A DNA stretch of 64,000 nt, taken from assembly GCA_041671485.1 (NCBI GenBank), contig JBAZBL010000001.1:23037-87036 (forward strand), written 5' to 3'. Positions 7,774-61,843 of the stretch are shown in pieces. The DNA comes from Minisyncoccota bacterium (GTDB lineage: Bacteria; Patescibacteriota; Minisyncoccia; Phycocordibacterales; PALSA-1337). The stretch's first letter is position 1, and each line of letters starts with the position of its first letter. The notes under the pieces are model-generated. The model was not told the DNA's origin. It ran no database searches and saw nothing but the letters and a program-made list of their open reading frames with translations. Made by a program: the position numbers and the translations under genes.

Positions 7774-7873
7774 CTAATGCGACTTGTTTAGGGAGGCGAA
7801 AGGGTTTTCGATGTTTGCGAGGACGAGCTTGTCGAGTCCAAGCAAACCGAAAACCACCTGGCGACGTAGTCGC

Positions 7874-7908: not shown

Positions 7909-7933
7909 TTTTAACGACTTCCTGGTAGTCCGA

Positions 7934-19196: not shown

Positions 19197-22100
19197 ATGA
19201 TACACATGAAAAAGAAGACATACGGAGGTCAGACCTCCGGAGACAAATCAAAAGAATATAGTCCCTCTTTGATTGAAAATAAATGGCAAAGAAAATGGAA
19301 ATCTTCCAAGCTTTTCAAGACAAAAGAAGATACAAAGAAAGATAAATATTATATTCTAGACATGTTCCCATATCCTTCTGGTGAAGGACTTCATGTCGGG
19401 CATCCCAAAGGCTATATAGCGACCGATATAGTATCACGATACAGGAGAATGAGTGGGTACTCGGTTCTGCACCCTATGGGTTTCGATGCTTTCGGACTTC
19501 CTGCAGAGAATTATGCTATCCAGATGAAGACGAACCCAGCTATTGCAGTGTCTCAGAATGTCAAAAGATTCAAGAAGCAACTAGAAATTCTTGGCTTTGA
19601 CTATGATTGGTCTCGAGAAGTGAATACTACAGATCCAAAATACTATAAATGGACGCAATGGATCTTTCTACAACTTTTGAATAAGGGTCTAGCTTATGAA
19701 TCATATGAGCCGATAAACTGGTGTCCTTCTTGCAAAACTGGTTTGGCAAATGAAGATGTCGATGATGGTAGGTGCGAGAGGTGTGGTACTCCTGTAGAGA
19801 AGAAGCCGATGAGACAATGGGTCTTGAAGATCACTGATTATGCAGGAAGGTTGCTTGAGGATTTGGATGTAAAGAATAATGATGATAAACCCTTACTCGA
19901 CTGGCCGGAATCGATCAAAGAGGCTCAAAGGAATTGGATAGGGAGGAGTGAGGGAGCGGAGATAAAATTTCAAATTTCAAATTTCAAAGGTCAAAAATTA
20001 GAAAAGAACATAAAAGTCTTCACCACCCGCCCTGACACCATATTCGGCGTGACTTATTTGGTATTGGCACCAGAGCATAGATTGGTCAAAGAACTTTTGC
20101 CATTGGTTGAAAACAAAAAGGAAGTTGAGGAATATGTTGGTCGTGCCAAGAATGAGACCGAAATAGAGCGCACTGATGCCAAGAAAGAGAAGACCGGCGT
20201 TGAGATGAAGGGTATCAAGGTGATCAACCCCGCAAATAGAGAAGAGATACCTGTTTGGATAGCAGATTATGTTCTTGCCGACTATGGTACAGGCGCCGTC
20301 ATGGCTGTACCCTCACACGATGAGAGAGATTGGGATTTTGCGAAGAAGTTCGACTTACCGATAAAGCAGGTCATTGCACCTTACTTCACAGACAATCCTG
20401 GAAGTAAAGATGCTGTTAGAGATAATAAGAAAACAGTAAAAAGAAAGACTGCATATGCTCTTGTCTTTGACAAAAAAAATGATAAATTTTTATGCTTGAA
20501 TTGGGAAAAATTTGGTTGGCACTCTGGGATCATTGGTGGAGTTGATGATGGTGAAAGTTTCAAAGATGCAGCTTTACGAGAAATAAAAGAAGAAACTGGT
20601 TATAAAAATTTAAATTTGATCAAGAAATTGGGAGGTGAGCAACACAATCATTTCTTTGCTACTCATAAAGATGAAAACCGATATGCAATTGGCCATGGCA
20701 TGCTTTTTGAACTTGTGAATGATGAAAAAGAATTGGTTCTCGAAGAACATAGTTTAAACCATAAACCTGTGTGGATTGATATGGATAAAATGGAAGACTG
20801 GCTCAATTTGTCAGCTTTTAAATATATGTGGAAAGCTTACAAATCTAATTCGGATTGTTTTACTGGATATGGTAGGTTGTTAAATTCTGAGAAATTTGAT
20901 GGGACAGAAAGTAAAGATGTGATGAAAGAGATTACAGATTTTGTCGGTGGTCAGTGGGTCACAAAGTATAAACTCCGAGACTGGGTATTTTCTAGACAAC
21001 GGTATTGGGGCGAGCCGATACCTGTAATACATTGCACAAATTGTTTTGCAAAAGAGAATAAAACAAACGCAATTATTTTGCATGGCTGTCCTTCGAATGT
21101 TGAAAGAGCGATGGATCCTAAAAGACAAACATATGATAAACATTGGATACCATGGACAAAGAAACAATTAGAAATAGCAGGTATTGAGACACTAGTGCCA
21201 TTGATGCCAGAACCATGGCATATGTCATATGAAAAATGGAAGATAGAATTTGATAAATTACCGATAACTGAAAATAGTATTCTAATAGGACATAGTTGTG
21301 GATCTGCTTTTCTGGTTAGATGGTTGGGAGAGACAAAGAAAAAAGTGAGGATGCTTGTCTTGGTTGCACCTTGGAAAATAAATAGTAATAATGATGAATT
21401 TAGAAATAAATTCTATACATACACTATTGACAATGAAATTAAAGACAAAATAAAAAATATCTTTATCTTTACATCAGATGATGAGGAGGATAATGGAAAG
21501 AAAAGTGTCAATATCTTCAGAGAATCTTTGAATGCAAAAGTAATTGAATTAAAAAAACATGGTCATTATATTTACGGTGATATGAAAACAGAAGAATTCC
21601 CTGAATTAATAAATTTGATAAGTTCGTTTTCTTCCAAAGTAGTACCAGTTCCCGAGAAAGACCTACCAATAAAACTACCCAAAGTAAAATCCTATGAACC
21701 CACAGGAACAGGCGAATCGCCACTCGCTAATATAGACAAATGGGTCAATGTAAAGTGTCCAAAGTGCAAAGGTAAAGCCAAAAGAGAGACAAATACAATG
21801 CCACAATGGGCTGGCTCGTCTTGGTATTATTTGCGATATGAAGATCCAAAGAATAAAAAAGCATTCGTTGACACAAAGAAAGACAAATACTGGTCACCAG
21901 TTGACCTCTATGTAGGCGGAGCAGAACATGCCACGCGCCACCTCATATACGCTCGATTCTGGCACAAATTCTTGTACGATATAGGCATAGTCTCAACCAT
22001 CGAACCATTCATCAAACTTCAGAACGTAGGACTCATAATAGGTGAAGATGGAAGGAAGATGTCAAAAAGATTTGGTAATGTTGTCAATCCTGATGAAATT

Positions 22101-22802
22101 GTCGAAATATATGGAGCTGATACACTCCGAATATATGAAATGTTCATGGGTCCATTTGATCAACAGATCGCTTGGAATACGAACAGTATGGTTGGTTCTA
22201 GGAGATTTATCGAAAAAGTTTGGAGACTAAATAATAATCTAAAGACGAATAGAGGATCGACCGTCGCAGGGGCGACAAATGGCGACTTGGCGAAGCCAAC
22301 GAAGGCATTTAGTCGCCCCGAGGAGGGAGATCCGTATTTAATTTTGATTGATAAAACCCTTCACAAAGCAATTAAAAAGGTAACCGAAGACATTCAAGGA
22401 CTAAAATTCAATACTGCATTGAGTACACTTATGATTGCTGTGAATGAAATGGAGTCTTCGGGATCGGTGACTAGAGAACAATTCGAAATATTACTGAAAC
22501 TGCTAGCACCATTTGCTCCTTATGTAACAGAAGAATTGTGGTCTGGACTTGGTAATAAGAAATCGATACATATATCAGAATGGCCAGAGTATGATCCGAG
22601 CCTAATAGTTGATAATGAAGTAAAAATCATTGTTCAAGTGAATGGCAAGGTTCGTGGTTCATTTGACGCTGATCCAGATATAAATGAAGAAGAAATGAAG
22701 AAGAAAGCGCTCAATCTACCTGAAGTGAAAAAGTGGATTGATGGCAATCAAATCAAGAAAGTGATCGTCGTTAAAAGTAAGTTGGTGAGTTTGGTGGTTT
22801 AA
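19197..22802 (+). CDS. leuS: Leucyl-tRNA synthetase with two embedded extra domains (NUDIX hydrolase; alpha/beta serine hydrolase) and one in-frame palindromic element
   Basis: 1201 aa, versus ~800-880 typical. HIGH motif 'PYPSGEGLHVGHPKGY'. KMSKS motif 'KMSKRFGNVV'. 'YKLRDWVFSRQRYWGEPIP'. C-terminal anticodon-binding domain. The NUDIX box is 'GGVDDGESFKDAALREIKEETG'. A GxSxG hydrolase nucleophile 'IGHSCGSAF' lies within the insertion. Confidence 0.9.
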   Translation: MIHMKKKTYGGQTSGDKSKEYSPSLIENKWQRKWKSSKLFKTKEDTKKDKYYILDMFPYPSGEGLHVGHPKGYIATDIVSRYRRMSGYSVLHPMGFDAFGLPAENYAIQMKTNPAIAVSQNVKRFKKQLEILGFDYDWSREVNTTDPKYYKWTQWIFLQLLNKGLAYESYEPINWCPSCKTGLANEDVDDGRCERCGTPVEKKPMRQWVLKITDYAGRLLEDLDVKNNDDKPLLDWPESIKEAQRNWIGRSEGAEIKFQISNFKGQKLEKNIKVFTTRPDTIFGVTYLVLAPEHRLVKELLPLVENKKEVEEYVGRAKNETEIERTDAKKEKTGVEMKGIKVINPANREEIPVWIADYVLADYGTGAVMAVPSHDERDWDFAKKFDLPIKQVIAPYFTDNPGSKDAVRDNKKTVKRKTAYALVFDKKNDKFLCLNWEKFGWHSGIIGGVDDGESFKDAALREIKEETGYKNLNLIKKLGGEQHNHFFATHKDENRYAIGHGMLFELVNDEKELVLEEHSLNHKPVWIDMDKMEDWLNLSAFKYMWKAYKSNSDCFTGYGRLLNSEKFDGTESKDVMKEITDFVGGQWVTKYKLRDWVFSRQRYWGEPIPVIHCTNCFAKENKTNAIILHGCPSNVERAMDPKRQTYDKHWIPWTKKQLEIAGIETLVPLMPEPWHMSYEKWKIEFDKLPITENSILIGHSCGSAFLVRWLGETKKKVRMLVLVAPWKINSNNDEFRNKFYTYTIDNEIKDKIKNIFIFTSDDEEDNGKKSVNIFRESLNAKVIELKKHGHYIYGDMKTEEFPELINLISSFSSKVVPVPEKDLPIKLPKVKSYEPTGTGESPLANIDKWVNVKCPKCKGKAKRETNTMPQWAGSSWYYLRYEDPKNKKAFVDTKKDKYWSPVDLYVGGAEHATRHLIYARFWHKFLYDIGIVSTIEPFIKLQNVGLIIGEDGRKMSKRFGNVVNPDEIVEIYGADTLRIYEMFMGPFDQQIAWNTNSMVGSRRFIEKVWRLNNNLKTNRGSTVAGATNGDLAKPTKAFSRPEEGDPYLILIDKTLHKAIKKVTEDIQGLKFNTALSTLMIAVNEMESSGSVTREQFEILLKLLAPFAPYVTEELWSGLGNKKSIHISEWPEYDPSLIVDNEVKIIVQVNGKVRGSFDADPDINEEEMKKKALNLPEVKKWIDGNQIKKVIVVKSKLVSLVV
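19223..19239. repeat. Palindrome CGGAGGTC-A-GACCTCCG (family also at 49341 and 51121)
   Basis: Perfect 8-bp arms. It lies at codons 9-15 of the leuS ORF. Confidence 0.8.
19965..19985 (+). repeat. Heptanucleotide tandem repeat (AAATTTC)x3 inside leuS
   Basis: AAATTTCAAATTTCAAATTTC. The same heptamer, x4, occurs at the 5' end of the M23 peptidase gene. Confidence 0.85.
22254..22333. mobile_element. GC-rich palindromic miniature element (family A) inserted in-frame in leuS
   Basis: GGATC...CGTCGCAGGGGCGACAAATGGCGACTTGGCGAAGCCAACGAAGGCATTTAGTCGCCCCGAGGAGGG...GATCC. About 93% identical to the infB copy (44490-44576) and the topA copy (40424-40530, reverse complement). It encodes 'STVAGATNGDLAKPTKAFSRPEEGD' within an otherwise AT-rich gene. 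Confidence 0.75.
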
Positions 22803-28003: not shown

Positions 28004-28010
28004 TAAATAC

Positions 28011-28065
28011 GGTTAACGTCAAGGACTAACCTTACTGTTCCCAAGGTTAGTCCTTGACGTTAACC
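28011..28065. repeat. 23-bp perfect inverted repeat (GGTTAACGTCAAGGACTAACCTT - 9 nt - AAGGTTAGTCCTTGACGTTAACC) between mnmA stop and clpB start
   Basis: Seen directly in the sequence. A collapsed relative (TTACGTCAAGGTTAGTTCTTG) occurs at 31193-31215. It could be a terminator or an operator. Confidence 0.8.
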
Positions 28066-28107
28066 GAACTCCTTCCCCAGCTAGAAAATCTGTGTTATTA
28101 TACTTTT

Positions 28108-30918: not shown

Positions 30919-31002
30919 GCGCAGGTGGCAGAGTGGTCAATTGCAGTGGACTGTAAATCCATCGCCCTATGGGCTCCGGGGGTTCAAATCCCTCCCTGCG
31001 CA
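30919..31002 (+). tRNA. tRNA-Tyr (GTA), class II with long variable arm
   Basis: Acceptor GCGCAGG/CCTGCGC with discriminator A. Anticodon arm GTGGA-[CTGTAAA]-TCCAT. Variable hairpin GCCC-TAT-GGGC. T arm GGGGG-TTCAAAT-CCCTC. Confidence 0.9.
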
Positions 31003-31012
31003 CATGAAAAAA

Positions 31013-31032: not shown

Positions 31033-31187
31033 GAGTGGACGCAGAGCAAAGCGCTTGAGCGCTTTGCGTGGAGGGATTTGAAAAGGTCGAGCATATTTTC
31101 GAACCTGAGCGAGCGATCAGCGAGTCGAAGGTGAGAAAATGCGAGACCTGTACAGAGTCTGTAAGACTCAAATCCCTCCCTGCGCAC
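31033..31187 (+). mobile_element. tRNA-3'-end-associated miniature element (copy 1), ending in a 20-bp duplicate of the tRNA-Tyr 3' end
   Basis: The direct repeat TCAAATCCCTCCCTGCGCAC occurs at 30984-31003 and 31168-31187. The left arm ACGCAG-[GC hairpin AGCAAAGCGCTTGAGCGCTTTGC]-GTGGAGGGATTTGAA is antisense to the tRNA 3' end. A ~60-nt core GAAAAGGTCGAGCATATTTTCGAACCTGAGCGAGCGATCAGCGAGTCGAAGGTGAGAAAATGCGA is ~97% identical to 43378-43438. Confidence 0.7.
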
Positions 31188-31219
31188 AAAATTTTACGTC
31201 AAGGTTAGTTCTTGCTGTA

Positions 31220-32554: not shown

Positions 32555-32839
32555 GTGCGAATGTTTGAGGACGATGAACGGAGTATTATGATCCAAAAAC
32601 AAAGATTCATTTTGTCTGTCGCCATGTTGATGGCCCTGGTAGCAGCGCTACTAGTGTTCATCAGCTATCCAAAAGAGGTGGCGCCGGTGATGACTCCGGT
32701 CATCACGAACACGGCTCCTGTAGAGGAGATCGTTGAGACCAACAATGTAGTCACCAATTCCGCGAAAGTGGATGGGGTGATAAACAAAACTGGATCAGTC
32801 TCGGTGACTGGAACAGTTCGTGCAGAGTTCGGGAAGTGA
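32555..32839 (+). CDS. Small membrane-anchored hypothetical protein (GC-rich island)
   Basis: 94 aa. One TM ('FILSVAMLMALVAALLVFI') and a Thr/Val-rich tail. Its GC content is distinctly higher than the surrounding genome. Confidence 0.5.
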   Translation: MRMFEDDERSIMIQKQRFILSVAMLMALVAALLVFISYPKEVAPVMTPVITNTAPVEEIVETNNVVTNSAKVDGVINKTGSVSVTGTVRAEFGK

Positions 32840-32898
32840 AGTGCAGTGCAGAAAACAACAGAAACAAACACAACAAACAGAGAAGAAAGACAACGCAG

Positions 32899-33990
32899 AT
32901 GAAAAAAACACAAATCCTATCGGTAATCTTATCAGTCACACTGCTCGCAGTCGGCGCCTTTGCGCAATCACCTCCAGCTTCTAGCGGTGGTGGTTCGAGC
33001 GGAGGCACGGGGACAATCGTGGTTCCGGCAGATAAAATGCCAACCGCGCTTGCCTTCCTCGGTTCCAAGGCGGCACTACGCGCTTTCGCTCGTGAAAGTG
33101 CAAGGAGCGCGAACTTAAACATCAACTCTGCCGGCATGCAGGGTACATGGGGAACTGGTTCCTCATGGGATTCCCCAAAAAGTCAAGAACAAATCCTTTC
33201 GATAATCAATGCGTGGAGGTTCACCTTCACCATGGAGAATCCAGCGGATTCTGTTCAGGCGACGACGGAAATCAAGAACAGCGACTGGGAGACTCTCTTC
33301 AGCGCGGAGTCTTGGCGGACGCCACAGCTTGTGAGTGGAAGTAGTTACCGATTGCCGGAACTTTACTTCCACTTAACACTGGCGGATATCATCCCATTCA
33401 AGGTTGACAGGTCGGTTCAATGGGGTCAAATCAAGTACCTCAATGACGACGGCAGAACGATCACTACCGTTGACCTTGTTGTCCGGAACGGAAAAGTTTA
33501 TTTCCGATCCGATCTCGCAGGTAAGGGAATTCTCGTCCTGCACAATAACGATGGGAGAACATTCCTGTATAACCTCCGGAATGGTGGAGTACAGGTACCA
33601 GTTGCAAGTGTTCAGTACATGGGGAGTTCCTCGTGGATTGAGAATATGCCATGGTTCAACAACCCAAGCACCATCAATCAGCAGGTCTGGAGCTGGAATG
33701 GTGTTGGCCAAAATCCTACATTCGATGTCAACATGGACTCGAGTGCATGGGTATCGTTCAGGACATATTCCAACGAAGGTGCCGAAGCGATTGGTTTCCA
33801 GGTACGACCACAAGGTGGCACGAACTGGACTTTCTATCCGGTTGTCCTACCTGCCAAGTATGTACCAATCCAACTCACCCCAGGCACCTCGTTTATCATT
33901 CCGGTATGGAATCCGGATGAGTTCAAGGAACCGGAGCCGTACATTCCTGAGAATGGGACGCCGGTGGGTTTCTTCGATGGTAAGGGTTAA
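32899..33990 (+). CDS. Secreted hypothetical protein with signal peptide (GC-rich island); start at ATG 32899
   Basis: 'MKKTQILSVILSVTLLAVGAFAQSP' looks like a signal peptide. It is followed by a Gly/Ser linker and a ~330-aa beta-rich domain rich in W and Y. No family was recognised. Confidence 0.6.
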   Translation: MKKTQILSVILSVTLLAVGAFAQSPPASSGGGSSGGTGTIVVPADKMPTALAFLGSKAALRAFARESARSANLNINSAGMQGTWGTGSSWDSPKSQEQILSIINAWRFTFTMENPADSVQATTEIKNSDWETLFSAESWRTPQLVSGSSYRLPELYFHLTLADIIPFKVDRSVQWGQIKYLNDDGRTITTVDLVVRNGKVYFRSDLAGKGILVLHNNDGRTFLYNLRNGGVQVPVASVQYMGSSSWIENMPWFNNPSTINQQVWSWNGVGQNPTFDVNMDSSAWVSFRTYSNEGAEAIGFQVRPQGGTNWTFYPVVLPAKYVPIQLTPGTSFIIPVWNPDEFKEPEPYIPENGTPVGFFDGKG

Positions 33991-34012: not shown

Positions 34013-34051
34013 CCCCGCAAGTTGCGCAAGCAGCTTGCGGGGTATTCTTTT
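34013..34051 (+). terminator. Rho-independent terminator CCCCGCAAG...CTTGCGGGG + TATTCTTTT
   Basis: 9-bp GC-rich stem with a 12-nt loop and a T-rich tail, directly after the island ORF. Confidence 0.75.
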
Positions 34052-37514: not shown

Positions 37515-37598
37515 ATCCGCATAATACATCACACATAAGAAAATGCAAAAAGATGGCATTGAATGACTGTGTCCACTTTATGGGGTACAGATCAATTG

Positions 37599-37680
37599 TG
37601 CCGGGAGAGAGAATCGAACTCTCATGGATTACTCCGTACGATTTTGAGTCGTATGCGTCTACCAATTCCGCCATCCCGGC
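37599..37680 (-). tRNA. tRNA-Leu (CAA), class II
   Basis: Reverse complement reads GCCGGGATGGCGGAATTGGTAGACGCATACGACTCAAAATCGTACGGAGTAATCCATGAGAGTTCGATTCTCTCTCCCGGCA. Anticodon arm TACGA-[CTCAAAA]-TCGTA, with a long variable arm. Confidence 0.9.
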
Positions 37681-37769: not shown

Positions 37770-38255
37770 TTAAAGGGGTAGGTATTGTCGGCCTGTATCA
37801 AATGCAGTATCCGATATAGCTACCATCCATTGTTTATTCTTGCCATCACTACTTCGCCACCTTTTTTCAAATTTATCTATCTCCAATGTAAATCCTTCAC
37901 CATTCCAAGGATCATTGAGGATAATATTATCTTCATCTATACCAATAACAACAGCATAATGACCTTCTTCATTTGAAGGTTCAATAAAATTTATGATCAC
38001 TGGGTGACCATTATTTATTTGGTCTTTGATAGAGATTATTGATGTATCATTATCAACAAAAGCATATAATCCAGACTTTACTATTACATGAATGATGCCA
38101 CCGTGTTTTGTCCCATCTTTTCCTTGTTTAGAAATCTCTTTCAATTCAAGTTCTGATTTCTTTATACCATAATATTCAAGAACCATACGCAAAGAAGCAG
38201 GACCACATGATGTATTTGAATTTTGACTATAGAATGGTACCTTTATTGTTTTCAT
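37770..38255 (-). CDS. C39-like papain-fold cysteine peptidase
   Basis: 'PFYSQNSNTSCGPASLRMVLEYYG' carries the Gln and catalytic Cys. 'EGHYAVVIG' is the His region and 'NDPW' the Asp/Asn region. Confidence 0.7.
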   Translation of the reverse strand: MKTIKVPFYSQNSNTSCGPASLRMVLEYYGIKKSELELKEISKQGKDGTKHGGIIHVIVKSGLYAFVDNDTSIISIKDQINNGHPVIINFIEPSNEEGHYAVVIGIDEDNIILNDPWNGEGFTLEIDKFEKRWRSSDGKNKQWMVAISDTAFDTGRQYLPL

Positions 38256-38290
38256 AGATTCCTATATTTGCTATAATAACACTTAATACT

Positions 38291-39253
38291 ATGTCCACAC
38301 CATATGTAAACAATGCGATATTCTGGATAGAGATAGAGAAGGTCAGCCCAAATCCATATCAACCGCGACGAGAATTTGACGAGATGGCTTTGAAGAGCTT
38401 GGCAGAATCCATAAGGATGTATGGTGTACTCCAACCCCTAGTTGTGACTAGGAAAGAAGTCGAAAAAGATGATGGTGGACTTTCTGTAGAATATGAACTC
38501 ATTTCAGGTGAAAGGAGACTACGCGCATCGAAACTAGCTGGATTATCACAAGTACCAGCTCTCATAAGGAGCGGGGAAGACGGAGCGAGAGAAAAACTAG
38601 AGATCGCTATCATAGAAAATCTACAAAGAGAAGATCTCAATCCTGTTGAGAGAGCAAGATCTTTCAGTAGACTTATCAAAGAATTTGGCTTGAAGCAAAT
38701 ACAAGTCGCAGACAAAGTAGGCAAGAGCCGTGAATATGTAGCTAACACTTTGCGTATATTGGCTTTGCCAGAAGAAATACTAACTGCTTTGGGAGAAGGA
38801 AAAATATCAGAAGGGCATACAAGACCGCTTCTTATGTTATCGGGAAGACCCGAAGAACAGCTTGTTCTATTCAAGGAAATTTTGATCAAGAAATTATCAG
38901 TGCGTGATGCAGAATCAGCTTCGAGAAGGGTTGCAACAGATAGGGTCAGGAATCGTGACAAATATCTGGACCCAGCAGTACTTGAAATTGAAAAGAAACT
39001 GAACGAAGCTCTAGGTACACGAGTAAAGGTTGATAGGACAAATGAAAATGGTGGTACTGTAAAAATTGACTTCTTTTCTACAGATGATCTTCGCGCATTA
39101 TTGGTCAAACTAGGCGCAGAATTGAATCTAGGTGAAGCAACAAAAGCAGACGCCAAATTGCAAAATAATTCACCAGTTGATGATCGTTCACCAGATGAAA
39201 TACAAAAAGAAGAGAACGAGGATCTTTATTCTCTGAAGAATTTTTCGGTTTAA
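38291..39253 (+). CDS. parB: Chromosome partitioning protein ParB/Spo0J
   Basis: ParB box 'GERRLRASKLAGLSQVPALIR', an HTH 'IQVADKVGKSREYVANTLRIL', and a C-terminal dimerisation region. Confidence 0.88.
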   Translation: MSTPYVNNAIFWIEIEKVSPNPYQPRREFDEMALKSLAESIRMYGVLQPLVVTRKEVEKDDGGLSVEYELISGERRLRASKLAGLSQVPALIRSGEDGAREKLEIAIIENLQREDLNPVERARSFSRLIKEFGLKQIQVADKVGKSREYVANTLRILALPEEILTALGEGKISEGHTRPLLMLSGRPEEQLVLFKEILIKKLSVRDAESASRRVATDRVRNRDKYLDPAVLEIEKKLNEALGTRVKVDRTNENGGTVKIDFFSTDDLRALLVKLGAELNLGEATKADAKLQNNSPVDDRSPDEIQKEENEDLYSLKNFSV

Positions 39254-39259
39254 CCTGTA

Positions 39260-41710
39260 TCAAGGATTAACTTCCTTTATTTTCTTTTTGAATCCACGTT
39301 GTTTCTTTTCTTGTGCCAATAACTCTAATGCACGTTCGAATGTAATATTGTAAATATCATCTGGTGCTTTGACTGAACGGAAGTCGCCATCAAGGACGAC
39401 GTATGGACCAAAACGTCCGATCGAAGCTGTAATTTCTTTATTTGTCTTTGGATCTATACCCAATACTTTTGGCAAACTCAAATATTTGAGAGCATCTGCA
39501 ACCGTAACTTTCATAGGATCAGCGTTCTTTGGAATCGAGGCCATCTTTGGTTTAAAATTAGCAACAATTTTATTGGCATCTTGCTCTTCACTTTTCACTT
39601 TTAACTTTTCCCCGCGCGCCAAGCTTCGCCCGGCGAAGCGGGCGGGACTTTTAATCTTTATTTTCCCCTTAATCCTCTCCCCCAACTGCACATATGGTCC
39701 AAATCTTCCATTCAAAACAAATATTGGCAATCCTGTTGTCGGATCTATACCTATAGGTTCATCTTTCTTGAATTCCATACCGTCTATAGTGAGTGCTCCA
39801 TCACAATCGGGATATTTTGAACATGATATAAATTTGCCGTTCTTTCCTAGTTTTATTTCCATAGAAGGACTGCCACATTTCGGACATTTGAACTTTGAAT
39901 CTGCTAAACCAAGATTGGTCAATTTGTCTATCTTTTCTTTGGACTTCACTTCTTTGTGAAATGGTCCATAAAAGTCAGTAAGAGTCTTCAAATATGTACG
40001 TTCACCATTTGCTATTTCATCGAGTTCATTCTCCATCTCTGCTGTAAAGTCATCACTTATATAAGTAGGGAAGTTCTCCTCTAGGAATGTAGAAACAACT
40101 TCACCTATATCGGTCGGCTTTAGAGAGCGACCCTCCTTTTCTACATAACCTCTATCTTCTATAGTCTTTGAAATAGAAGCGTATGTAGAAGGACGCCCTA
40201 TGCCTCTCTTTTCCAATTCTTTGATCAAACCTGCTTCTGTATATCGAGACGGTGGTTGTGTTTGCTTTTCTTCGGAATCAATATTCAAAAGCTTCAATGA
40301 TTCTCCTTTATCACATTTTGGTAAATTAACTTCATCGCCACTTGAATCTGGATCAGCCTTGAGCCAGCCGTCGAATAAAATACGAGAACCATTTGCTTCG
40401 AAGTTTGGGATGCCACCGGCCGCTTCTCCCTCCTCGGCGCGACTAAATGTCTTCGTTTGCTTCGCAAAGTCGACATTTGTCGCCGCCTCGACGGTCGAAG
40501 CGGCCTCCGACGCCGTTCGCGGAGGGAGAATGTTCTCCACCGATTCCAAAATGTTTGCAATAATCTTTGTTTTCGCCAATCTTGCATCTGCCATTTGAGA
40601 AGCAACCGCTCTTTGCCAAATAAGTTTATAAAGACGCTTTTGTTCATCCGTATGTCCAGCAACAGATTTATTGAAATGACTTGGTCTTATAGCTTCATGT
40701 GCTTCTTGAGCATTTTTGCTCTTTGTAGCATATGTTCTTATATGTAGGTAATTTTTGCCATATTCTTTTTCTACCACTTGGCTTATCTGTGCCAATGCTT
40801 GCTCTCCTAGATTCGTAGAATCTGTCCTCATATATGTGATATATCCAGATTCGTACAATTTCTGGGCAATACTCATTGTCCTAGAAGGAGAAAAACCGAG
40901 TCTTGAACTAGCGGTCTGTTGCAAAGTAGATGTTATAAATGGTGCGCGTGGAGATCTCTTTTGTTCTGATTCTTCTATGTCTATGACTTTCCAATCATTC
41001 TTTTTTGCAGTGTCAATTATGTATTCAGCTTCTTCTTTCTTCTTTGGCTCTACAGAACAAGATAGATGCAATTTACCATCTTTTGTAGTCAACCAATCTC
41101 CAGCAATAGTCCAATATGTCTCTGGCTTGAATGCACGGATCTCTCTTTCTCTCTCCATTATTATACGTAGAGCAGGGGACTGGACTCGGCCAGCAGACAA
41201 GCCATAACGAACTTTTTTCCAGATAAGTCCGGAGAGATCATATCCTACTATCCTGTCTAGAACACGACGAGCTTCTTGTGCTTCTTTTAGATTTTCATCT
41301 ATAGGTCTAGGACTTTTGAGAGCTTCCTCTACAGCTTCTTTTGTAACTTCATGATATGTGATTCTCTTTATCTTCGATGCAGGGATCTTGTCATAACCAT
41401 CAGACAAGCCCTTCTTGGTCAGAAGCTCCTTCAAATGCCAAGCTATGGCTTCACCTTCACGGTCTGGGTCGGTTGCAAGAAGTATTTCATCGGCTTTCTC
41501 TGCTTCAATCCTTATTTCATCTATGATAGTTTGCTTCTTTGCTACGACTTCATAGTGGGGTATAAAACCGCCTTCTATATCTACTGCTTTTTTATTGGAC
41601 TTTGGCAGATCACGCACATGACCAACAGAAGCACGTACGATAAAATCTTTTCCCAAATATTTGGAAATAGTTTTTGCTTTTGAGGGGGACTCGACGATCA
41701 GTAGTTTCAT
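39260..41710 (-). CDS. topA: DNA topoisomerase I (with two in-frame GC-rich palindromic insertions)
   Basis: Toprim N-terminus 'LLIVESPSKAKTISKYLG', the catalytic Tyr region, and C-terminal zinc ribbons 'CPKCGS...CSKYPDC'. Confidence 0.92.
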   Translation of the reverse strand: MKLLIVESPSKAKTISKYLGKDFIVRASVGHVRDLPKSNKKAVDIEGGFIPHYEVVAKKQTIIDEIRIEAEKADEILLATDPDREGEAIAWHLKELLTKKGLSDGYDKIPASKIKRITYHEVTKEAVEEALKSPRPIDENLKEAQEARRVLDRIVGYDLSGLIWKKVRYGLSAGRVQSPALRIIMEREREIRAFKPETYWTIAGDWLTTKDGKLHLSCSVEPKKKEEAEYIIDTAKKNDWKVIDIEESEQKRSPRAPFITSTLQQTASSRLGFSPSRTMSIAQKLYESGYITYMRTDSTNLGEQALAQISQVVEKEYGKNYLHIRTYATKSKNAQEAHEAIRPSHFNKSVAGHTDEQKRLYKLIWQRAVASQMADARLAKTKIIANILESVENILPPRTASEAASTVEAATNVDFAKQTKTFSRAEEGEAAGGIPNFEANGSRILFDGWLKADPDSSGDEVNLPKCDKGESLKLLNIDSEEKQTQPPSRYTEAGLIKELEKRGIGRPSTYASISKTIEDRGYVEKEGRSLKPTDIGEVVSTFLEENFPTYISDDFTAEMENELDEIANGERTYLKTLTDFYGPFHKEVKSKEKIDKLTNLGLADSKFKCPKCGSPSMEIKLGKNGKFISCSKYPDCDGALTIDGMEFKKDEPIGIDPTTGLPIFVLNGRFGPYVQLGERIKGKIKIKSPARFAGRSLARGEKLKVKSEEQDANKIVANFKPKMASIPKNADPMKVTVADALKYLSLPKVLGIDPKTNKEITASIGRFGPYVVLDGDFRSVKAPDDIYNITFERALELLAQEKKQRGFKKKIKEVNP
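39596..39653. repeat. 42-bp GC-rich palindromic element (CTTTTCCCCGCGCGCCAAGCTTCGCCCGGCGAAGCGGGCGGG) flanked by 8-bp direct repeat ACTTTTAA, in-frame in topA
   Basis: The direct repeats sit at 39596-39603 and 39646-39653. The element contains the perfect palindrome GCTTCGCC-C-GGCGAAGC. It encodes 'SPARFAGRSLARGE' between KIK and KVK codons. Confidence 0.7.
40424..40530. mobile_element. GC-rich palindromic miniature element (family A, reverse orientation) with 10-bp perfect TIR TTCTCCCTCC/GGAGGGAGAA, in-frame in topA
   Basis: The reverse complement of the inner ~65 nt (CCGTCGAGGCGGCGACAAATGTCGACTTTGCGAAGCAAACGAAGACATTTAGTCGCGCCGAGGAGGG) matches the leuS and infB copies at ~85-90%. It encodes 'STVEAATNVDFAKQTKTFSRAEEGE', paralleling the leuS peptide. 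Confidence 0.75.
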
Positions 41711-41771
41711 GACTTTTAGTATTGCATGAATGAATTGTCTAAGTCAAAAAAATCTGGTAGATTATGCATAT

Positions 41772-41844
41772 CCGCCCATAGCTCAGCTGGTAGAGCAGAT
41801 CCCTCTTAAGGATAAGGTCGTAGGTTCAAATCCTACTGGGCGGA
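41772..41844 (+). tRNA. tRNA-Lys (CTT)
   Basis: Acceptor CCGCCCA/TGGGCGG with discriminator A. Anticodon arm GATCC-[CTCTTAA]-GGATA. T arm GTAGG-TTCAAAT-CCTAC. Confidence 0.88.
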
Positions 41845-41874
41845 CAGAAATAGATAAAAGATCAAAAATAAAAA

Positions 41875-42246
41875 ATGATAAAAAACAAGAATAAATTTAA
41901 GAAGAGGTTGTATTCATGGACTTTGAATATAATTAGATTAACAGACACATTACCTGATTTATTGTCTGCGGATGTAATAGGTAAACAATTGATGAGAAGC
42001 GGAACAAGCATTATTGCCAATTATGTTGAAGCAAAATCTGCCAGTTCAAGAAAAGATTATATAAACTTTTTCACTCACGCACTAAAATCTGCCAATGAAT
42101 CAAAAGTGTGGTTAACAATGATGAAAGATTTAGAAATTGGAAATAGAGAGCAAACCTGTGTATTATTAAGAGAGTTAGATGAAATATCAAAAATATTGGC
42201 ATCTAGTATCATAACCCTTAAGAATAAAGGTGATAAAAATCTTTGA
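41875..42246 (+). CDS. Four-helix-bundle protein (family often found in rRNA IVS/tRNA loci)
   Basis: 'LMRSGTSIIANYVEAKSASSRKDYINFFTHALKSANESKVWL' fits the four-helix-bundle (PF05635-like) pattern. Family membership is recalled from memory. Confidence 0.6.
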   Translation: MIKNKNKFKKRLYSWTLNIIRLTDTLPDLLSADVIGKQLMRSGTSIIANYVEAKSASSRKDYINFFTHALKSANESKVWLTMMKDLEIGNREQTCVLLRELDEISKILASSIITLKNKGDKNL

Positions 42247-43083: not shown

Positions 43084-43220
43084 CTGCGAATTTTGCATAA
43101 GCGTAGCGAATGGCAAAATTCAGCATCCTCTCGAAGTTCGATCCGCCAGCTGGCGGAGAGGGACGAAGCAGGAATTAGTATTAATTTTTGATCTTTGATT
43201 TTTAATTTTTGACTTAATAT

Positions 43221-43304: not shown

Positions 43305-43486
43305 CACTAAAAAATATATAATGATAGACTTATTTGCCCGGGAGCAAGGTGCATTTGCACCTTGCGAGTGAGAATCGAAAAGTCTGAGCATATTTTCGAA
43401 CCTGAGCGAGCGATCAGCGAGTGGAAGGTGAGAAAATGCGAAGACTATACCGTTCCAGTATGGAAAGATTCCCACCCCGGGCACAC
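43305..43486 (+). mobile_element. tRNA-3'-end-associated miniature element (copy 2), ending in a 20-bp duplicate of the tRNA-Leu(TAA) 3' end
   Basis: The direct repeat GATTCCCACCCCGGGCACAC occurs at 43288-43307 and 43467-43486. The left arm TTTGCCCGGG-[GC hairpin AGCAAGGTGCATTTGCACCTTGC]-GAGTGAGAATCGAA is antisense to the tRNA 3' end. The ~60-nt core at 43378-43438 is shared with the tRNA-Tyr copy. Confidence 0.7.
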
Positions 43487-43502
43487 TTGATCTGTACCCC
43501 AT

Positions 43503-43835: not shown

Positions 43836-45437
43836 TTAACCTACCTTTTCCACCGTCTTCACCGCCTCCACTCTATCTCCAACAGCAATTTCAACTTTTG
43901 CTTCTACCATAACACCAAATTCATGTCCCTCTCTAACTTCACCTGTTCTCATCTTCTTTTCTTGAAGTTCTCTTATCTTACCTCGTCCAATCTCTGCATC
44001 TCTTCTAATTATCTTTACTTCATTTCCAGTCAAAATAGTACCCGTTACAACCTTTCCACCAATAACTTGTTTATCTCTTTCTTTTGAAAATATCGCAAGA
44101 ATCTTGGCGAGGCCAATTGATTCCTCTATATATTCTTTTGGCACTTTTGCCAGTAATGAATCACGAACGAATTGAACCAATTCATATATAACTTTGAATG
44201 TTTTGACATTTACAGAATTGTGCTCGATCACAGCAACAACCTTCTTGTCTGGCATTGAATTGAAACCAATTATTGTAATATTTGGATCACCCATGGCAAT
44301 CTTTACATCATTTTCATTTATATCACCAATACCTTCGGAAACAACCTTTATTTGCACCTTATCATGTTTTATCTTTGCCAATTCATGTTTGACACCATCG
44401 AGACTGCCTATAACATCAGCTTTGATGATAATGGGGAATGAAATAATTTCTGTCTCTGTATTCTCTTCAGAATCAATAGCTGACTTGTTGTCGTCGCCCC
44501 CGTCGCAGGCGGCGACAAATGGCGACTTCGCGAAGCGAACGAAGGCATTTCGTCGCGCCGAGGAGGGGGCGACGACTGAAATCTTATTTACCTCCACCAA
44601 CTTCTCTGCCTCTTTCTTTGTATCAACTATAGTAAATGTACTTCCACAAACAGGTATTTCATTCCAGCCACTAACAATTACAGGCATTGAAGCTATCGCT
44701 CTATCAATCTTTTGTCCTTTGAAATCTTCTATAAAACGAATTGGTGTGTAAGATACACCTGCAACAGCAAATGTACCTATTCCAAGTGTTCCATTTTTTA
44801 TCAATAATGTGGCTTGTATTCCTTTTTGTGTATCCATTTCAGATTCTATGACTATACCTTCTGCAGATTTATCTGGATCTGTTTTGAGATCGGCCAATTC
44901 GGAAATCAAAATAACCATATCCAAAAGTTCTGAAATGCCTTCTCCATTCAAGGAAGAAATTGATACATTTGGAATATCACCACCCCAACCTTCAAGATAT
45001 ACCTCATTCTCGCCCAAACTTTGTTTTGTCTTATTTATATCTGCATTTGGTTTGTCTATCTTATTTATAGCAACAACATAGGGGATTTTTGCATTTTTAA
45101 TTTCGTTCAAAGCTTCTATCGTTTGTGGCTTTACACCATCTTCAGCAGAAACAACCAATATTGCTACATCAGCAGCTTTGGCACCTCTCTCACGGATAGT
45201 ACAAAAGGCTTCATGACCTGGTGTATCCAAAAATGTGATTTCATGTTTATTCCCATCACTACTTATATGCTCTACTTCATATGCGCCAACGTGCTGGGTT
45301 ATACCACCAGCTTCGCCTGCAACTATATTTGATTTCCTGATGAAATCGAGCAGAGTAGATTTGCCATGATCTATATGACCCATAACAACGACTATAGGAG
45401 GCCGCTTTATGCAGTTTTTTGTATTCTTATTTGGCAT
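43836..45437 (-). CDS. infB: Translation initiation factor IF-2 (short form; contains in-frame palindromic element)
   Basis: G-domain 'VVVMGHIDHGKSTLLDFIR', 'DTPGHEAF' and 'NKIDK'. The C-terminal beta-barrel domains are present. Confidence 0.92.
   Translation of the reverse strand: MPNKNTKNCIKRPPIVVVMGHIDHGKSTLLDFIRKSNIVAGEAGGITQHVGAYEVEHISSDGNKHEITFLDTPGHEAFCTIRERGAKAADVAILVVSAEDGVKPQTIEALNEIKNAKIPYVVAINKIDKPNADINKTKQSLGENEVYLEGWGGDIPNVSISSLNGEGISELLDMVILISELADLKTDPDKSAEGIVIESEMDTQKGIQATLLIKNGTLGIGTFAVAGVSYTPIRFIEDFKGQKIDRAIASMPVIVSGWNEIPVCGSTFTIVDTKKEAEKLVEVNKISVVAPSSARRNAFVRFAKSPFVAACDGGDDNKSAIDSEENTETEIISFPIIIKADVIGSLDGVKHELAKIKHDKVQIKVVSEGIGDINENDVKIAMGDPNITIIGFNSMPDKKVVAVIEHNSVNVKTFKVIYELVQFVRDSLLAKVPKEYIEESIGLAKILAIFSKERDKQVIGGKVVTGTILTGNEVKIIRRDAEIGRGKIRELQEKKMRTGEVREGHEFGVMVEAKVEIAVGDRVEAVKTVEKVG
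44490..44576. mobile_element. GC-rich palindromic miniature element (family A) with 12-14-bp perfect TIR GTCGTCGCCCCC/GGGGGCGACGAC, 87 bp (29 codons), in-frame in infB
   Basis: Inner sequence CGTCGCAGGCGGCGACAAATGGCGACTTCGCGAAGCGAACGAAGGCATTTCGTCGCGCCGAGGAGGG. It is in the opposite coding orientation to the leuS and topA copies. It encodes 'SSARRNAFVRFAKSPFVAACDGGDD' in IF-2. Confidence 0.8.
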
Positions 45438-46994: not shown

Positions 46995-47037
46995 TAATTT
47001 GAAAGGAGTCAAATAAATTGGACCCTTTCAAATAGGG

Positions 47038-47213
47038 TTTGGAGGTGCAAATACAGAAACTCAAACCTGCGTAACTCGCTTGCGTCATTCTCTTGTATTT
47101 TCACAAAAGACTCGACCTCTCGGACATGAACGGCCTCGTCTTTTGGAAAATACTAGTCGAATGACTACGCTCGAACAGTACTCGGTTTGAGTTTCTGTAT
47201 TTGCACCTCCAAA
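47038..47213. repeat. 176-bp element with 30-bp perfect terminal inverted repeats (TTTGGAGGTGCAAATACAGAAACTCAAACC ... GGTTTGAGTTTCTGTATTTGCACCTCCAAA); interior is an imperfect palindrome
   Basis: Arms at 47038-47067 and 47184-47213. The interior halves (GCGTCATTC.../...GAATGAC...GC and TTTTCACAAAAGAC/GTCTTTTGGAAAA) are also roughly symmetric. The element is intergenic between rplU and recR. Confidence 0.85.
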
Positions 47214-47226
47214 CTAAACTTTTCTG

Positions 47227-54298: not shown

Positions 54299-54766
54299 AT
54301 GATTGAACTTACAACAGGTGTAATCTTCCTAATGTCATCCCTATACGGCTCTCAACATGCAGATATGCAAGTTGCAAATATTGCAAATGCACAGATGCAG
54401 GACGAAGAAAAAGTAGAGAAGGTGGCAATTGTGAAGATTGTTGATCCAAAAGACATCGAAGCATATATCCGCAAAGAATTTTCTGATAAGCCAATCCTAA
54501 TTGAAATTGCATGGTGCGAATCACGCTTCAGGCAATTCAATGAAAATGGAACAGTAATTCGTGGTGAAAAAAATAGCAAAGATGTCGGTGTGATGCAGAT
54601 CAATGAAAGATTCCATGCCGAAGATGCAGTCGAACTAGGATATAACATATATTCAACACAGGGTAATACAGCATTTGGTAAATATCTTTATGAGAAGTAT
54701 GGAACAGATCCATGGAGCGCGTCCAAGAAGTGTTGGAGTCAGTCGGGTGATCTCGCGAAGAAGTAA
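54299..54766 (+). CDS. Small lysozyme-like / lytic transglycosylase (SLT-like) domain protein
   Basis: N-terminal hydrophobic segment. Catalytic-Glu context 'IAWCESRFRQ' and 'GVMQIN' fit the family-1 lytic transglycosylase pattern. Confidence 0.6.
   Translation: MIELTTGVIFLMSSLYGSQHADMQVANIANAQMQDEEKVEKVAIVKIVDPKDIEAYIRKEFSDKPILIEIAWCESRFRQFNENGTVIRGEKNSKDVGVMQINERFHAEDAVELGYNIYSTQGNTAFGKYLYEKYGTDPWSASKKCWSQSGDLAKK
54639..54766 (+). repeat. 128-bp direct repeat, copy 1 (3' end of SLT-like gene)
   Basis: 126/128 identical to 57332-57459. Similarity continues ~45 bp further downstream into terminator-like hairpins (GGCTCC..GGAGTCTTTTGTT). Confidence 0.9.
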
Positions 54767-56130: not shown

Positions 56131-57174
56131 CTATGCTCTTTTCCACTCCTCTATATCAGGATGAAAATCAACTTGATACTCTGGGATTCCTAGAGAGATT
56201 CCATATTCTTTAGCTTCGTTGTACTGGTCTTTACTTTTCCTGTCTATGAGAAATACCTTGTTTTTGAAAATAATATAGTGATGTGATTCACTCTTGAAAT
56301 CTGCATACCAATTATATTTACTATCGAGGGCTTTGGATATTTCCTCTGCCACCTCTTTTGATTCTTTTACTGGGATTATGACTGAGTGCATTGTCCATTG
56401 AGATACCCATGGAGTTTTATGCTCATCAGTGACTTTTTCAATTTCTGTTGAGATAATTTCGATTTTCTTAAGTATATCCTTATTTTCCAGAGACTCATCA
56501 ATAATTACTCCCTTAAATGGTTGTTTTCGGAGCAATTTCTTTAGGTCACTTTCTACTAGGACTCTTTGTGTGTCAGTATTTGATATCATAGATTGGAGTG
56601 GCTTAGTCGAATTCTTGGGATTAGACTTGTCCTCAATAGAAAAACCGATATACTCCACGTGCTTTTTCTTCCGGTCACGCACCCACTTGATAGCAGGGAG
56701 GAGATCAGCGTCAGAACTTACGACAATAGCTATATCATATACATTCTCAACTGCCCCTACGATGAGATCTGTGGCGAGCATGACATCAATACCTTTTTCT
56801 CTTTTTCGCTCGTATGTTATTTCGGTGATACCAGCTTTTTTGAGTTTCTGATATTCTTTCATGCGATCATCTACAGTTATAGTTTCAGTGCGGGTTTTCA
56901 ATTTGCTTGTGCGTAATATCCAGCCATACTTCTTGAGTTCGGCAAAAAACCTCGTCTGTCGTGCCATTGAATATTTTGATTTGAGATTTCCTTCTTGTTC
57001 CCGGACTGTACCGATGTAGTAGCGCTTGTGACCAGATGAGATAGTTTTGCCGTTCGCAAGAAGTGCGGTGAATGCTTCAAAATCAAAACCGAGTTCTGAT
57101 ACCCCGATCTTCTTCAGGGCTATATGGTGGAGATTCCCTCCGTCTATAAAAATGGCAGCTCGGTTCTTATTCAT
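56131..57174 (-). CDS. NYN-domain (LabA-like PIN) protein with uncharacterised C-terminal extension
   Basis: 'AAIFIDGGNL' and 'DIAIVVSSDADLLPAIKWVRD' are NYN/LabA acidic motifs. The ~150-aa C-terminal region has no recognised domain. Confidence 0.65.
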   Translation of the reverse strand: MNKNRAAIFIDGGNLHHIALKKIGVSELGFDFEAFTALLANGKTISSGHKRYYIGTVREQEGNLKSKYSMARQTRFFAELKKYGWILRTSKLKTRTETITVDDRMKEYQKLKKAGITEITYERKREKGIDVMLATDLIVGAVENVYDIAIVVSSDADLLPAIKWVRDRKKKHVEYIGFSIEDKSNPKNSTKPLQSMISNTDTQRVLVESDLKKLLRKQPFKGVIIDESLENKDILKKIEIISTEIEKVTDEHKTPWVSQWTMHSVIIPVKESKEVAEEISKALDSKYNWYADFKSESHHYIIFKNKVFLIDRKSKDQYNEAKEYGISLGIPEYQVDFHPDIEEWKRA

Positions 57175-57331: not shown

Positions 57332-57459
57332 GATATAACATATATTCAACACAGGGTAATACAGCATTTGGTAAATATCTTTATGAGAAGTATGGAACAG
57401 ATCCATGGAGCGCGTCCAAGAAGTGTTGGAATCAGGCGGGTGATCTCGCGAAGAAGTAA
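57332..57459 (+). repeat. 128-bp direct repeat, copy 2 (orphan 3' fragment of the SLT-like gene; preceded by in-frame stop)
   Basis: It matches 54639-54766 with 2 mismatches. It has no upstream coding continuation. Confidence 0.9.
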
Positions 57460-61608: not shown

Positions 61609-61843
61609 ATGGGTATTATAGCAAGAAAGTATATGAATTTCTTTATGCTAGAGTTATCAACAACAAGTAAATTTGACTATATATATCCAATTTGTTAGTC
61701 TTTAATTAGAAGTATGCAATAATAACTTACGAGGTGCTCCGATGTTCCCTCAGAATATCTGGGGCTTGAGTTGGAGAACACCACCTTGTGAGACGCTACT
61801 TCTAACAAAGAACCCCTTTCCACTTCGGTCAGGGATTTTTTGT

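Follow-up and report, generated by a model that had tools for sequence, protein, structure and literature searches.

An in-frame GC-rich palindrome within a lysine-codon repeat of topA in a Paceibacterota genome

How does a short, GC-rich palindrome come to lie in frame within an essential gene of an AT-rich bacterium, and does the direct repeat that brackets it record a transposition event? The question is raised by a segment of topA, which an earlier note on this DNA had described as a 42-bp element flanked by an 8-bp direct repeat, a candidate target-site duplication (TSD). The source genome is AT-rich, reduced, and assigned to the Paceibacterota (CPR); the window, by which we mean the whole 64-kb stretch of DNA that was analysed, has an overall GC content of 37.5%. 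The host gene codes for a type IA DNA topoisomerase I of 816 amino acids and converges on parB—the two stop codons are separated by 6 nt. The insert cannot be put down to faulty assembly of a single contig, since its region is 100% identical in the ENA assembly and in the Logan assembly of run SRR6484324; three assemblies therefore agree. The closest TopA relative in the databases shares 76% amino acid identity over its full length, and a protein search with the last 217 amino acids of TopA as query gave C-terminal fragments of which the best has 70% identity. Among these database relatives, the closest being at 76% amino acid identity, no topA allele with an empty site (that is, without the insert) was available. 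The features discussed below are collected in Table 1.

Table 1. Positions of the insert, its surroundings, and the family A copies, numbered along the 64-kb window.
Feature	Position	Strand	Remark
parB	38291..39253	+	convergent with topA
topA	39260..41710	-	host of the insert
Hypervariable K-rich TopA linker (about residues 681-718)	39557..39670	-	between two Toprim_C_rpt repeats (Pfam)
Lysine-codon tandem repeat, period 7, 3.4 copies	39587..39610	-	found with TRF; abuts the core
Left ACTTTTAA copy, proposed 'TSD'	39597..39604		within the period-7 tandem repeat
GC-rich core of the insert	39611..39646	-	36 nt = 12 codons, 83% GC
Perfect 8-1-8 palindrome GCTTCGCC-C-GGCGAAGC	39623..39639		centre of the core
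Intrinsic-terminator-like architecture: GC stem-loop, then ACTTTTAATCTTTATTTT	39625..39664	+	antisense to topA
Right ACTTTTAA copy	39647..39654		adjoins the core
Family A copy in topA	40425..40498	-	larger and unrelated; context only
Family A copy in leuS	22257..22330
Family A copy in infB	44507..44567

The GC-rich core reads CCCGCCCGCTTCGCCGGGCGAAGCTTGGCGCGCGGG in gene sense and codes for PARFAGRSLARG, residues 689-700 of TopA; translation across the insert region of the gene gives KIKSPARFAGRSLARGEKLKVK, and on the + strand the order of the parts is ACTTTTAA-CTTTTCCCCGCGCGCCAAGCTTCGCCCGGCGAAGCGGGCGGG-ACTTTTAA. The core is an imperfect palindrome—its arms of 20 and 15 nt are arranged about one central base, with two bulges—and it begins with CCCG in whichever orientation it is read. 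Folded as DNA it reaches -14.7 kcal/mol (z = -2.9), and the GC island at the insert peaks at 80% GC when averaged over 40 nt. Four perfect GC-rich hairpins whose stems reach 7 bp or more, the insert among them, occur in the 64 kb, where block shuffles yield 0-3; there are also four gene-internal GC islands, the other three being the copies of family A. The insert contains no stop codon and its 12 codons keep the reading frame, and the topA open reading frame stays open, at 804 codons, once the core is removed. GC content, palindrome, and 12-codon length thus bear out the description of a compositionally foreign, palindromic, in-frame segment in topA, and the insert is indeed distinct from the other, larger GC-rich element that topA contains. 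Its size, however, had been overestimated: the GC-rich core comprises 36 nt rather than 42.

The part of TopA that carries the insert varies widely in length, with 12-150 amino acids between the flanking repeats among 120 orthologues (65-76% identity), and AlphaFold gives residues 681-718 as coil with a pLDDT below 50. The best reading of these data is that the linker is probably disordered, that its length is unconstrained, and that the insert is tolerated there. The PARFAGRSLARG peptide occurs in none of the 120 orthologues, nor was it found among 240 TopA relatives.

If the segment belonged to a mobile family, further copies might be expected—and the earlier note had proposed that the 42-mer be looked for elsewhere and its copies be checked for short AT-rich flanking duplications. 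The sequence searched yielded no second copy, which leaves no flanks to compare. Within the window, both a pattern search with mismatches and blastn-short found none, and when the core was compared by blastn-short with 75 kb of related loci, no match exceeded 11 nt. The exact 21-mer at the centre of the core has 13 matches in GTDB representative genomes (the source genome not included), all in non-CPR genomes of 43-72% GC; none extends further, and we regard them as chance matches rather than true copies. The same 21-mer has 25 matches in JGI metagenome contigs (the source contig not included), all from GC-rich genomes and most of them in one orthologous Limisphaerales-type gene, while two insert-derived 20/21-mers have 0 matches in IMG/VR. 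Against plasmids and phages, blastn gave chance matches only (E of 0.02 or more); across GTDB representatives, JGI metagenomes, plasmids, and phages, no donor matched beyond the 21-mer. A pattern for the empty site, with both flanks and a gap of 0-30, had 0 matches in metagenome contigs, which is no evidence either way because the source contig is not among them; Rfam at a permissive E gave nothing for the insert, and no transposase domain was present in the 10 candidate open reading frames scanned, out of about 60 in the window. The insert is single-copy in all the sequence searched, and with no second copy found its membership in a mobile family is not demonstrated.

Other palindromes of similar character are nevertheless at hand for comparison. 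Family A, of about 75 bp, has three copies, each in frame in an essential gene (leuS, topA, and infB), and none of the three copies has flanking direct repeats of 5 nt or more. A profile of the family A peptide found three matches among 1.84 billion representatives, two of them tiny open reading frames with the same peptide; the query is short. In relatives, the same two topA loops hold yet other GC-rich palindromes. Between the insert and a hairpin in the family A copy in topA there is a weak 16/19 match, a comparison that is inflated by both sequences being palindromes; 6 of 300 shuffles do equally well, and apart from this match a kinship of the insert with family A was rejected as not significant.

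The direct repeat beside the insert had been taken in the earlier note to favour transposition over replication slippage, and its setting decides how far that argument carries. The two ACTTTTAA copies do bracket the GC island, although the span assigned to the element (39596-39653) is off by one with respect to them. An exact 8-nt direct repeat in such a place is uncommon—among random 36-nt segments of the window, only 0.6% are bracketed by a comparable repeat at a distance of up to 10 nt on each side—and it gives some initial appeal to the idea that a transposase brought in a miniature transposable element of 42 bp, with ACTTTTAA as its 8-bp TSD. However, the 8-mer itself occurs about as often as chance predicts (7 times in the window, 6.2 expected), and it forms part of an interrupted tandem array of period 7 or 14. 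Positions 39590-39610 read GAAAAGT TAAAAGT GAAAAGT in gene sense, and 39647-39653 (TAAAAGT in gene sense) supply the opening half of a unit in the 14-nt repeat that the core interrupts. Once the core is removed, the two sides meet as a lysine-codon repeat, a perfect (TAAAAGTGAAAAGT)x2; in the core-deleted sequence the array amounts to 4.3 copies of period 7 or to a perfect 14-nt unit repeated twice (TRF scores of 53 and 59). The frame arithmetic points the same way. For a TSD, the length added is the repeat period, which is 50 nt and not the 48 nt obtained in the earlier note by adding 42 and 6; that sum is invalid for a duplication of this kind. Because 50 is not a multiple of 3, the gene before insertion would have run into a TGA: taking away one ACTTTTAA and the 42-mer leaves AAG ATT AAA AGT GAA AAG TGA, an in-frame stop. 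The flanking repeat also turns out to be what the earlier note had itself held to be incompatible with its proposal, a K-rich coding repeat seen in orthologues as well: lysine-codon microsatellites and K-rich composition recur in the linkers of the topA orthologues. With the element single-copy in the sequence searched and family A lacking TSDs in the same genome, we regard the TSD model as very improbable; since the TSD is unsupported, so is the transposition that had been read from it. More generally, where an insert lies in coding DNA of low complexity, a neighbouring direct repeat counts as evidence for transposition only if the frame arithmetic works.

What we favour instead, with moderate confidence, is that the segment is a solo 36-bp, 83% GC, imperfectly palindromic 12-codon insertion without a TSD, placed within a pre-existing lysine-codon repeat of the disordered TopA linker, and probably a relic or low-copy member of the GC-rich, hairpin-forming 'selfish' kind. 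It would have arrived by insertion, splitting the lysine-codon tandem repeat between the C-terminal Toprim_C_rpt repeats. The route may have been the TSD-less one of other palindromic inserts, that is, hairpin-dependent recombination or a single-strand transposition of the REP/RAYT kind. Its kin would be the general class of GC-rich hairpin-forming inserts, as exemplified by family A (leuS, topA, infB) and by the same topA loops of relatives. Once in place, the insert could persist because it is in frame, lacks stop codons, and extends by 12 residues a segment that can vary freely in length. An origin on the spot, without any mobile element, is a possibility that we rate as unlikely: the repair of a break in the unstable lysine-codon microsatellite may have taken up a short piece of GC-rich filler, or the palindrome may have been built in place by snap-back or template-switch copying, with only in-frame outcomes surviving. 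Such an origin would fit a segment that is single-copy wherever searched, that lies in a tandem repeat and hence at a fragile, slippage-prone site, and whose palindromic centre is perfect, as expected of snap-back copying; moreover, many soil bacteria of high GC content contain the 21-nt centre by chance, which shows that environmental DNA includes fragments of this sort. However, template switching on the local AT-rich template cannot yield 83% GC, no donor matches past the 21-mer, and recurrent GC-rich palindromic inserts occur in clearly repeated families in the genome and its relatives—these families make a family-type origin the simpler assumption. That the segment is ordinary coding sequence, its palindrome and GC content being coincidental or the product of selection for an Arg/Ala/Gly-rich peptide, is scarcely credible. 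All orthologues have a basic linker, and the inserted peptide contributes three Arg, but orthologue linkers gain their basic charge through Lys codons, the GC content exceeds the genome average more than twofold across exactly 12 codons, and the chance expectation for the palindrome pattern is 0.02 matches even with up to three mismatches allowed. Two further ideas were set aside. A CRISPR-repeat origin was considered for a resemblance to type I-E repeats and dropped, as the resemblance covers 10 nt only; translational bypass is unnecessary, the insert being in frame and stop-free.

Whatever its origin, the hairpin could have been kept for a function on the other strand, as an intrinsic terminator that stops parB read-through antisense to topA. 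The + strand stem-loop at 39625-39646 is followed by ACTTTTAATC, with the U-rich tract within the 0-2 nt expected of an intrinsic terminator; as RNA, the hairpin folds at -21.3 kcal/mol and runs into ACUUUUAAUCUUUAUUUU. No other terminator-like site occurs within 38000-42000, and among the 56 such sites in 60 kb it ranks third in strength. The arrangement would be strand-specific, as the tail on the sense strand is A-rich and topA itself would not be terminated, and the close spacing of the parB and topA stops leaves no intergenic room for a conventional terminator. Such a role would be compatible with any origin, but we consider it unlikely, and several observations speak against it. From the parB stop to the hairpin, which lies downstream, there are 358 nt, and lysine codons on one strand automatically produce a T-run on the other; the fold has a z-score of only -1.5 against shuffles, and the regional count of terminator-like sites does not exceed that of shuffles. 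Furthermore, neither a reciprocal topA terminator within parB nor a comparable arrangement in the topA-parB region of the closest relative was found. A broader proposal would combine function and mobility: GC-rich hairpins would be a class of mobile elements in Paceibacterota/CPR genomes that insert without a TSD, lodged in disordered loops of essential proteins, and the 36-mer would be a second very small family beside the 75-bp family A, doubling—by virtue of its lysine-codon context—as a strand-specific terminator, embedded in coding sequence, that shields topA from convergent parB transcription. We judge this combined proposal to be quite unlikely.

Taken alone, the topA insert is a minor curiosity and matters little, as one 12-codon insertion in a length-tolerant linker. 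Its value is as a data point in a wider pattern of in-frame GC-rich palindromes in essential genes (topA, leuS, infB). No description of in-frame GC-rich palindromes in Patescibacteria was found in the full-text literature searched; the pattern in the source genome and its relatives resembles Rickettsia palindromic elements and the GC clusters of yeast mitochondria.

Among known systems, miniature inverted-repeat elements (MITEs) such as Correia and ERIC are small, non-autonomous, and hairpin-capable, and sometimes form intragenic in-frame fusions (PMC10969869). MITEs have terminal inverted repeats and a TSD and are multi-copy, whereas the topA insert fails the TSD test and has no further copies in the sequence searched. 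SPRITE of Streptococcus pneumoniae is a terminator-like mobile repeat (PMC10969869). The insert shares with SPRITE and with intrinsic terminators a GC-rich stem-loop that, on one strand, leads into a T-run; unlike them, it lies within a coding region, antisense to its host gene, and is single-copy in the sequence searched, and its termination is predicted. REP sequences (repetitive extragenic palindromes) are imperfect GC-rich palindromes of 20-40 nt that RAYT (Y1) transposases mobilise in the IS200/IS605 manner without a TSD. They are extragenic, occur in tens to hundreds of copies, carry a conserved 5' GTAG tetranucleotide, and have a RAYT gene alongside. The topA insert, an imperfect GC-rich palindrome of 36 nt, falls within this size range; in contrast to REP, it starts with CCCG, is intragenic, and is single-copy in the sequence searched.

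The GC clusters of yeast mitochondria are short GC-rich palindromes in a very AT-rich genome, sometimes in frame, and give rise to protein-length polymorphism (PMC8811140). The topA insert is likewise short, GC-rich, palindromic, and in frame in an AT-rich genome; however, the yeast clusters form multi-copy families with AG/TAG terminal repeats read as TSDs and spread by mitochondrial gene conversion, whereas the insert has one copy in the sequence searched, no valid TSD, and a place on the chromosome of a bacterium. The palindromic elements of Rickettsia (RPE) are hairpin-forming selfish DNA that lies in frame within housekeeping genes unrelated to one another and becomes part of their protein products (PMC10969869). 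As with RPE, the insert lies in frame in a housekeeping open reading frame at a structurally tolerant site; RPE, however, measure about 100-150 bp, encode a conserved peptide, and occur in families of dozens of copies in Rickettsia, while the insert is 36 bp, resides in a CPR host, encodes a peptide that was not found in the 240 TopA relatives, and is single-copy in the sequence searched. With its length of about 75 bp and its three copies, family A is a closer analogue of RPE than the 36-bp insert.

The GC-rich palindrome in topA, flanked by an 8-mer direct repeat as the earlier note had described, is real. On the + strand the locus reads CACTTTTCACTTTTAA, then CTTTTCCCCGCGCGCCAAGCTTCGCCCGGCGAAGCGGGCGGG, then ACTTTTAATCTTTATTTTCCCC; positions 39623-39639 form the perfect palindrome GCTTCGCC-C-GGCGAAGC, and ACTTTTAA lies on both sides, at 39597-39604 and 39647-39654 (the span first given, 39596-39653, was off by one). 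GC content peaks here at 80% (40-nt window) against 37.5% for the window overall; shuffles yield an expected 0.02 matches to the palindrome pattern at up to three mismatches, and perfect GC-rich hairpins with stems of at least 7 bp number four in 64 kb, this one included, versus 0-3 in block shuffles. By chance the 8-mer itself would be expected 6.2 times in the window, and it occurs seven times. An ENA assembly (L001) and the Logan assembly of run SRR6484324 (L044) match the insert region at 100% identity, and a Candidatus Paceibacterota MAG carries an annotated protein identical to this TopA.

At the codon level, the stretch of foreign composition measures exactly 36 nt (39611-39646, 83% GC)—12 codons encoding PARFAGRSLARG, TopA residues 689-700. 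In gene sense this core, shown between its flanks, reads ATT AAA AGT / CCC GCC CGC TTC GCC GGG CGA AGC TTG GCG CGC GGG / GAA AAG TTA AAA GTG AAA AGT GAA GAG. A 7-nt tandem repeat (TRF, 39587-39610) directly adjoins the core; when the 36 nt are removed in silico, the flanks fuse to a perfect 28-nt array, (TAAAAGTGAAAAGT)x2, in which TRF finds 4.3 copies of period 7 and 2.4 of period 14, and topA stays open at 804 codons. The two ACTTTTAA 8-mers are the first halves of the two 14-nt units. We propose that a disordered linker received a short GC-rich palindrome within its lysine-codon microsatellite, without target duplication, and that the insert would have persisted because the outcome was in frame.

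The earlier note had read the locus as a 42-bp element with an 8-bp target-site duplication (TSD); a foreign, in-frame palindromic insert stands, while the TSD falls and we find no evidence of transposition. In any TSD model the added length equals the repeat spacing, which here is 50 nt and not divisible by three, so the sum 42 + 6 = 48 is invalid; excising one ACTTTTAA plus the 42-mer gives AAG ATT AAA AGT GAA AAG TGA, a stop codon. Neither the sub-repeat AAAAGT (period 43 nt) nor a 57-nt period, which needs non-adjacent repeats, rescues the model. An 8-mer repeat flanks only 0.6% of random 36-nt segments, but despite this rarity it is found here because the tandem array supplies both copies. 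The linkers of TopA orthologues are K-rich too and contain K-codon microsatellites (AAGGAAA x3.3 in L041, AAAAAG x2.7 in L046, AGAAAGCC x2.6 in L047), an outcome that the note had itself named as refuting its reading, and we consider the literal transposon model improbable.

The linker is itself highly variable: across 120 TopA orthologues (65-76% identity) the GRFGPYVQLG-to-KPKMASIP segment runs from ~12 to ~150 residues. AlphaFold (53-sequence alignment) models residues 681-718, the linker with the insert, as coil with pLDDT <50; the second hypervariable loop, residues 393-431 with family A, comes out likewise. The insert thus sits where extra residues are tolerated. Neither PARFAGRSLARG nor its other-frame translations occur in any of the 120 orthologues. 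An origin by chance or purely at the protein level is very unlikely. The topA of the closest relative (L040, 76%) lacks any GC island, and the C-terminal 217 aa as query recovered nothing closer than 70% identity; no empty site came to light.

Features of the window and of related loci
Feature	Position	Strand	Remarks
topA ORF	39260..41710	minus	816 aa, type IA topoisomerase I: Toprim, Topoisom_bac, Zn ribbon, two Toprim_C_rpt repeats
parB	38291..39253	+	convergent with topA, stops 6 nt apart
Family A copy, leuS	22257-22330		in frame
Family A copy, topA	40425-40498		in frame
Family A copy, infB	44507-44567		in frame
GC-rich palindromes, TopA loops	L045 11180-11288, 12212-12242		GTCACCCCCGCGAAAGCGGGGGTCCAG / CTGGATTCCGGCCTTCGCCGGA types
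GC-rich palindromes, TopA loops	L046 3824-3922, 4814-4844, 5506-5536		GTCACCCCCGCGAAAGCGGGGGTCCAG / CTGGATTCCGGCCTTCGCCGGA types
Extra hairpin GCCGCCTCGACGGTCGAAGCGGC	40482-40504		joined to the family A copy in topA GC island 40402-40532 (131 nt, longer than other family A copies)
Perfect GC-rich palindrome CGGAGGTCAGACCTCCG	19223-19239		within first 15 codons of leuS; includes GGAGG and complement CCTCC; terminator-like score on minus strand
Perfect 16-nt palindrome TCCGCCAGCTGGCGGA	43142-43157		tRNA-Cys/tRNA-Leu spacer
Perfect inverted repeat	47037-47067 / 47184-47214		31-nt arms, 116 nt apart, not GC-rich
Perfect inverted repeat	28010-28033 / 28043-28066		24-nt arms, 9 nt apart, not GC-rich
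tRNA-Pro (7686-7756) 3' end plus ~30 nt downstream	7739-7785 / 7874-7920		duplicated 135 nt on, 89% identity; looks like att-site remnant of an integrated element
Partial duplicates of tRNA 3' ends	30981-31004 / 31165-31188		
114-nt repeat	31075-31188 / 43372-43485		78% identical; downstream of tRNA-Tyr and tRNA-Leu
Inverted match	37580-37615 / 43467-43502		adjoins another tRNA-Leu
128-nt direct repeat	54639-54766 / 57332-57459		98% identical, 2.7 kb apart; encloses NYN-domain gene (56131-57174) and small unknown ORFs, Bro-N gene next; possibly a cassette that moved or recombined
Gene for 384-aa secreted-looking protein	32836-33990		~51% GC vs 37.5% genome; candidate for horizontal acquisition
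Terminator-like hairpin	34013-34042		after the 384-aa protein gene; window's strongest, 13 bp stem
23S rRNA intervening-sequence protein gene (PF05635)	41875-42246		alone between tRNA-Lys and tRNA-Leu, beside topA
DUF3800-V RNA (Rfam RF02964, 82.6 bits)	61708-61803		adjoins DUF3800 gene (61844-62509); Logan contigs L042 and L043 (two different runs) both stop within it, at 61786

The search for further copies, as the earlier note had suggested, returned none in the 64-kb window and no meaningful match in 75 kb of related Paceibacterota loci, IMG/VR, plasmids or phages. The central 21-mer AAGCTTCGCCNGGCGAAGCGG has 13 matches in 185,579 GTDB representative genomes, and JGI metagenome contigs give a further 25; every one comes from a non-CPR genome with 43-72% GC and none reaches past the core, which argues against a conserved, widespread CPR element; the source contig is absent from both sets, so these negatives are silent on uniqueness within its own genome. 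Logan contig files hold every 31-mer of an accession as distinct by construction (PMC12424806), and L044 runs unbroken through the insert; hence SRR6484324 has no second copy that lies between other flanks and shares a 31-mer with this one, a statement about near-identical copies only.

Selfish hairpin DNA of the kind that demonstrably recurs here and in related genomes is the simplest source, and we give even chances to the insert being a solo copy or relic member of such DNA. Family A, a larger element of ~75 bp, has three window copies (89-93% identical over 61-74 nt) in essential genes and in both orientations, none of the three with a flanking direct repeat of at least 5 nt; A-like sequences, as DNA or peptide, recur in other Paceibacterota, for example in L046 (once in topA, once at a contig end), in P0036 (within its linker peptide) and in the tiny ORFs P0241 and P0242. 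In other relatives the same two TopA loops hold different REP-like palindromes, e.g. GTCACCCCCGCGAAAGCGGGGGTCCAG and CTGGATTCCGGCCTTCGCCGGA, whose types translate as IPAKAGIQ- and LDSRLRGND-like peptides, and both hypervariable loops look like recurrent landing sites. We found no demonstrable kinship of the 36-mer to family A or to the relatives' palindromes; its best match, 16/19 at the centre to a hairpin spanning 40482-40501, is weak and may be coincidence, equalled by 6 of 300 shuffles in a test inflated because both sequences are palindromic. A single local event, for instance a break in the microsatellite that took up filler DNA, is a less likely source.

A terminator role would add to the origin question rather than compete with it. 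On the + strand the hairpin (RNA fold -21.3 kcal/mol) runs on into ACTTTTAATCTTTATTTT; no other terminator-like site lies in 38000-42000, and of the 56 such sites in 60 kb only two are stronger. Given the convergence of parB with topA, it could halt parB read-through antisense into topA, and its A-rich tail in the sense direction would leave topA itself unterminated. However, the T-run is an automatic by-product of opposite-strand lysine codons, the site lies 358 nt beyond the parB stop, and comparative support was sought and none found; we regard this putative role as rather doubtful.

Full-text literature searches found no description of in-frame palindromes of this kind in Patescibacteria—a negative that concerns the wider phenomenon, family A above all, rather than the single 36-mer. 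In this CPR genome, family A resembles Rickettsia palindromic elements (RPE). The insert lacks the TSD that is a criterion for MITEs; it resembles REP sequences in size and in the absence of a TSD. Being multi-copy defines yeast GC clusters, RPE and REP alike, whereas the insert is single-copy in the sequence searched. In behaviour, its nearest counterparts are RPE (PMC10969869) and the GC clusters that sit in frame within var1 of yeast mitochondria (PMC8811140).
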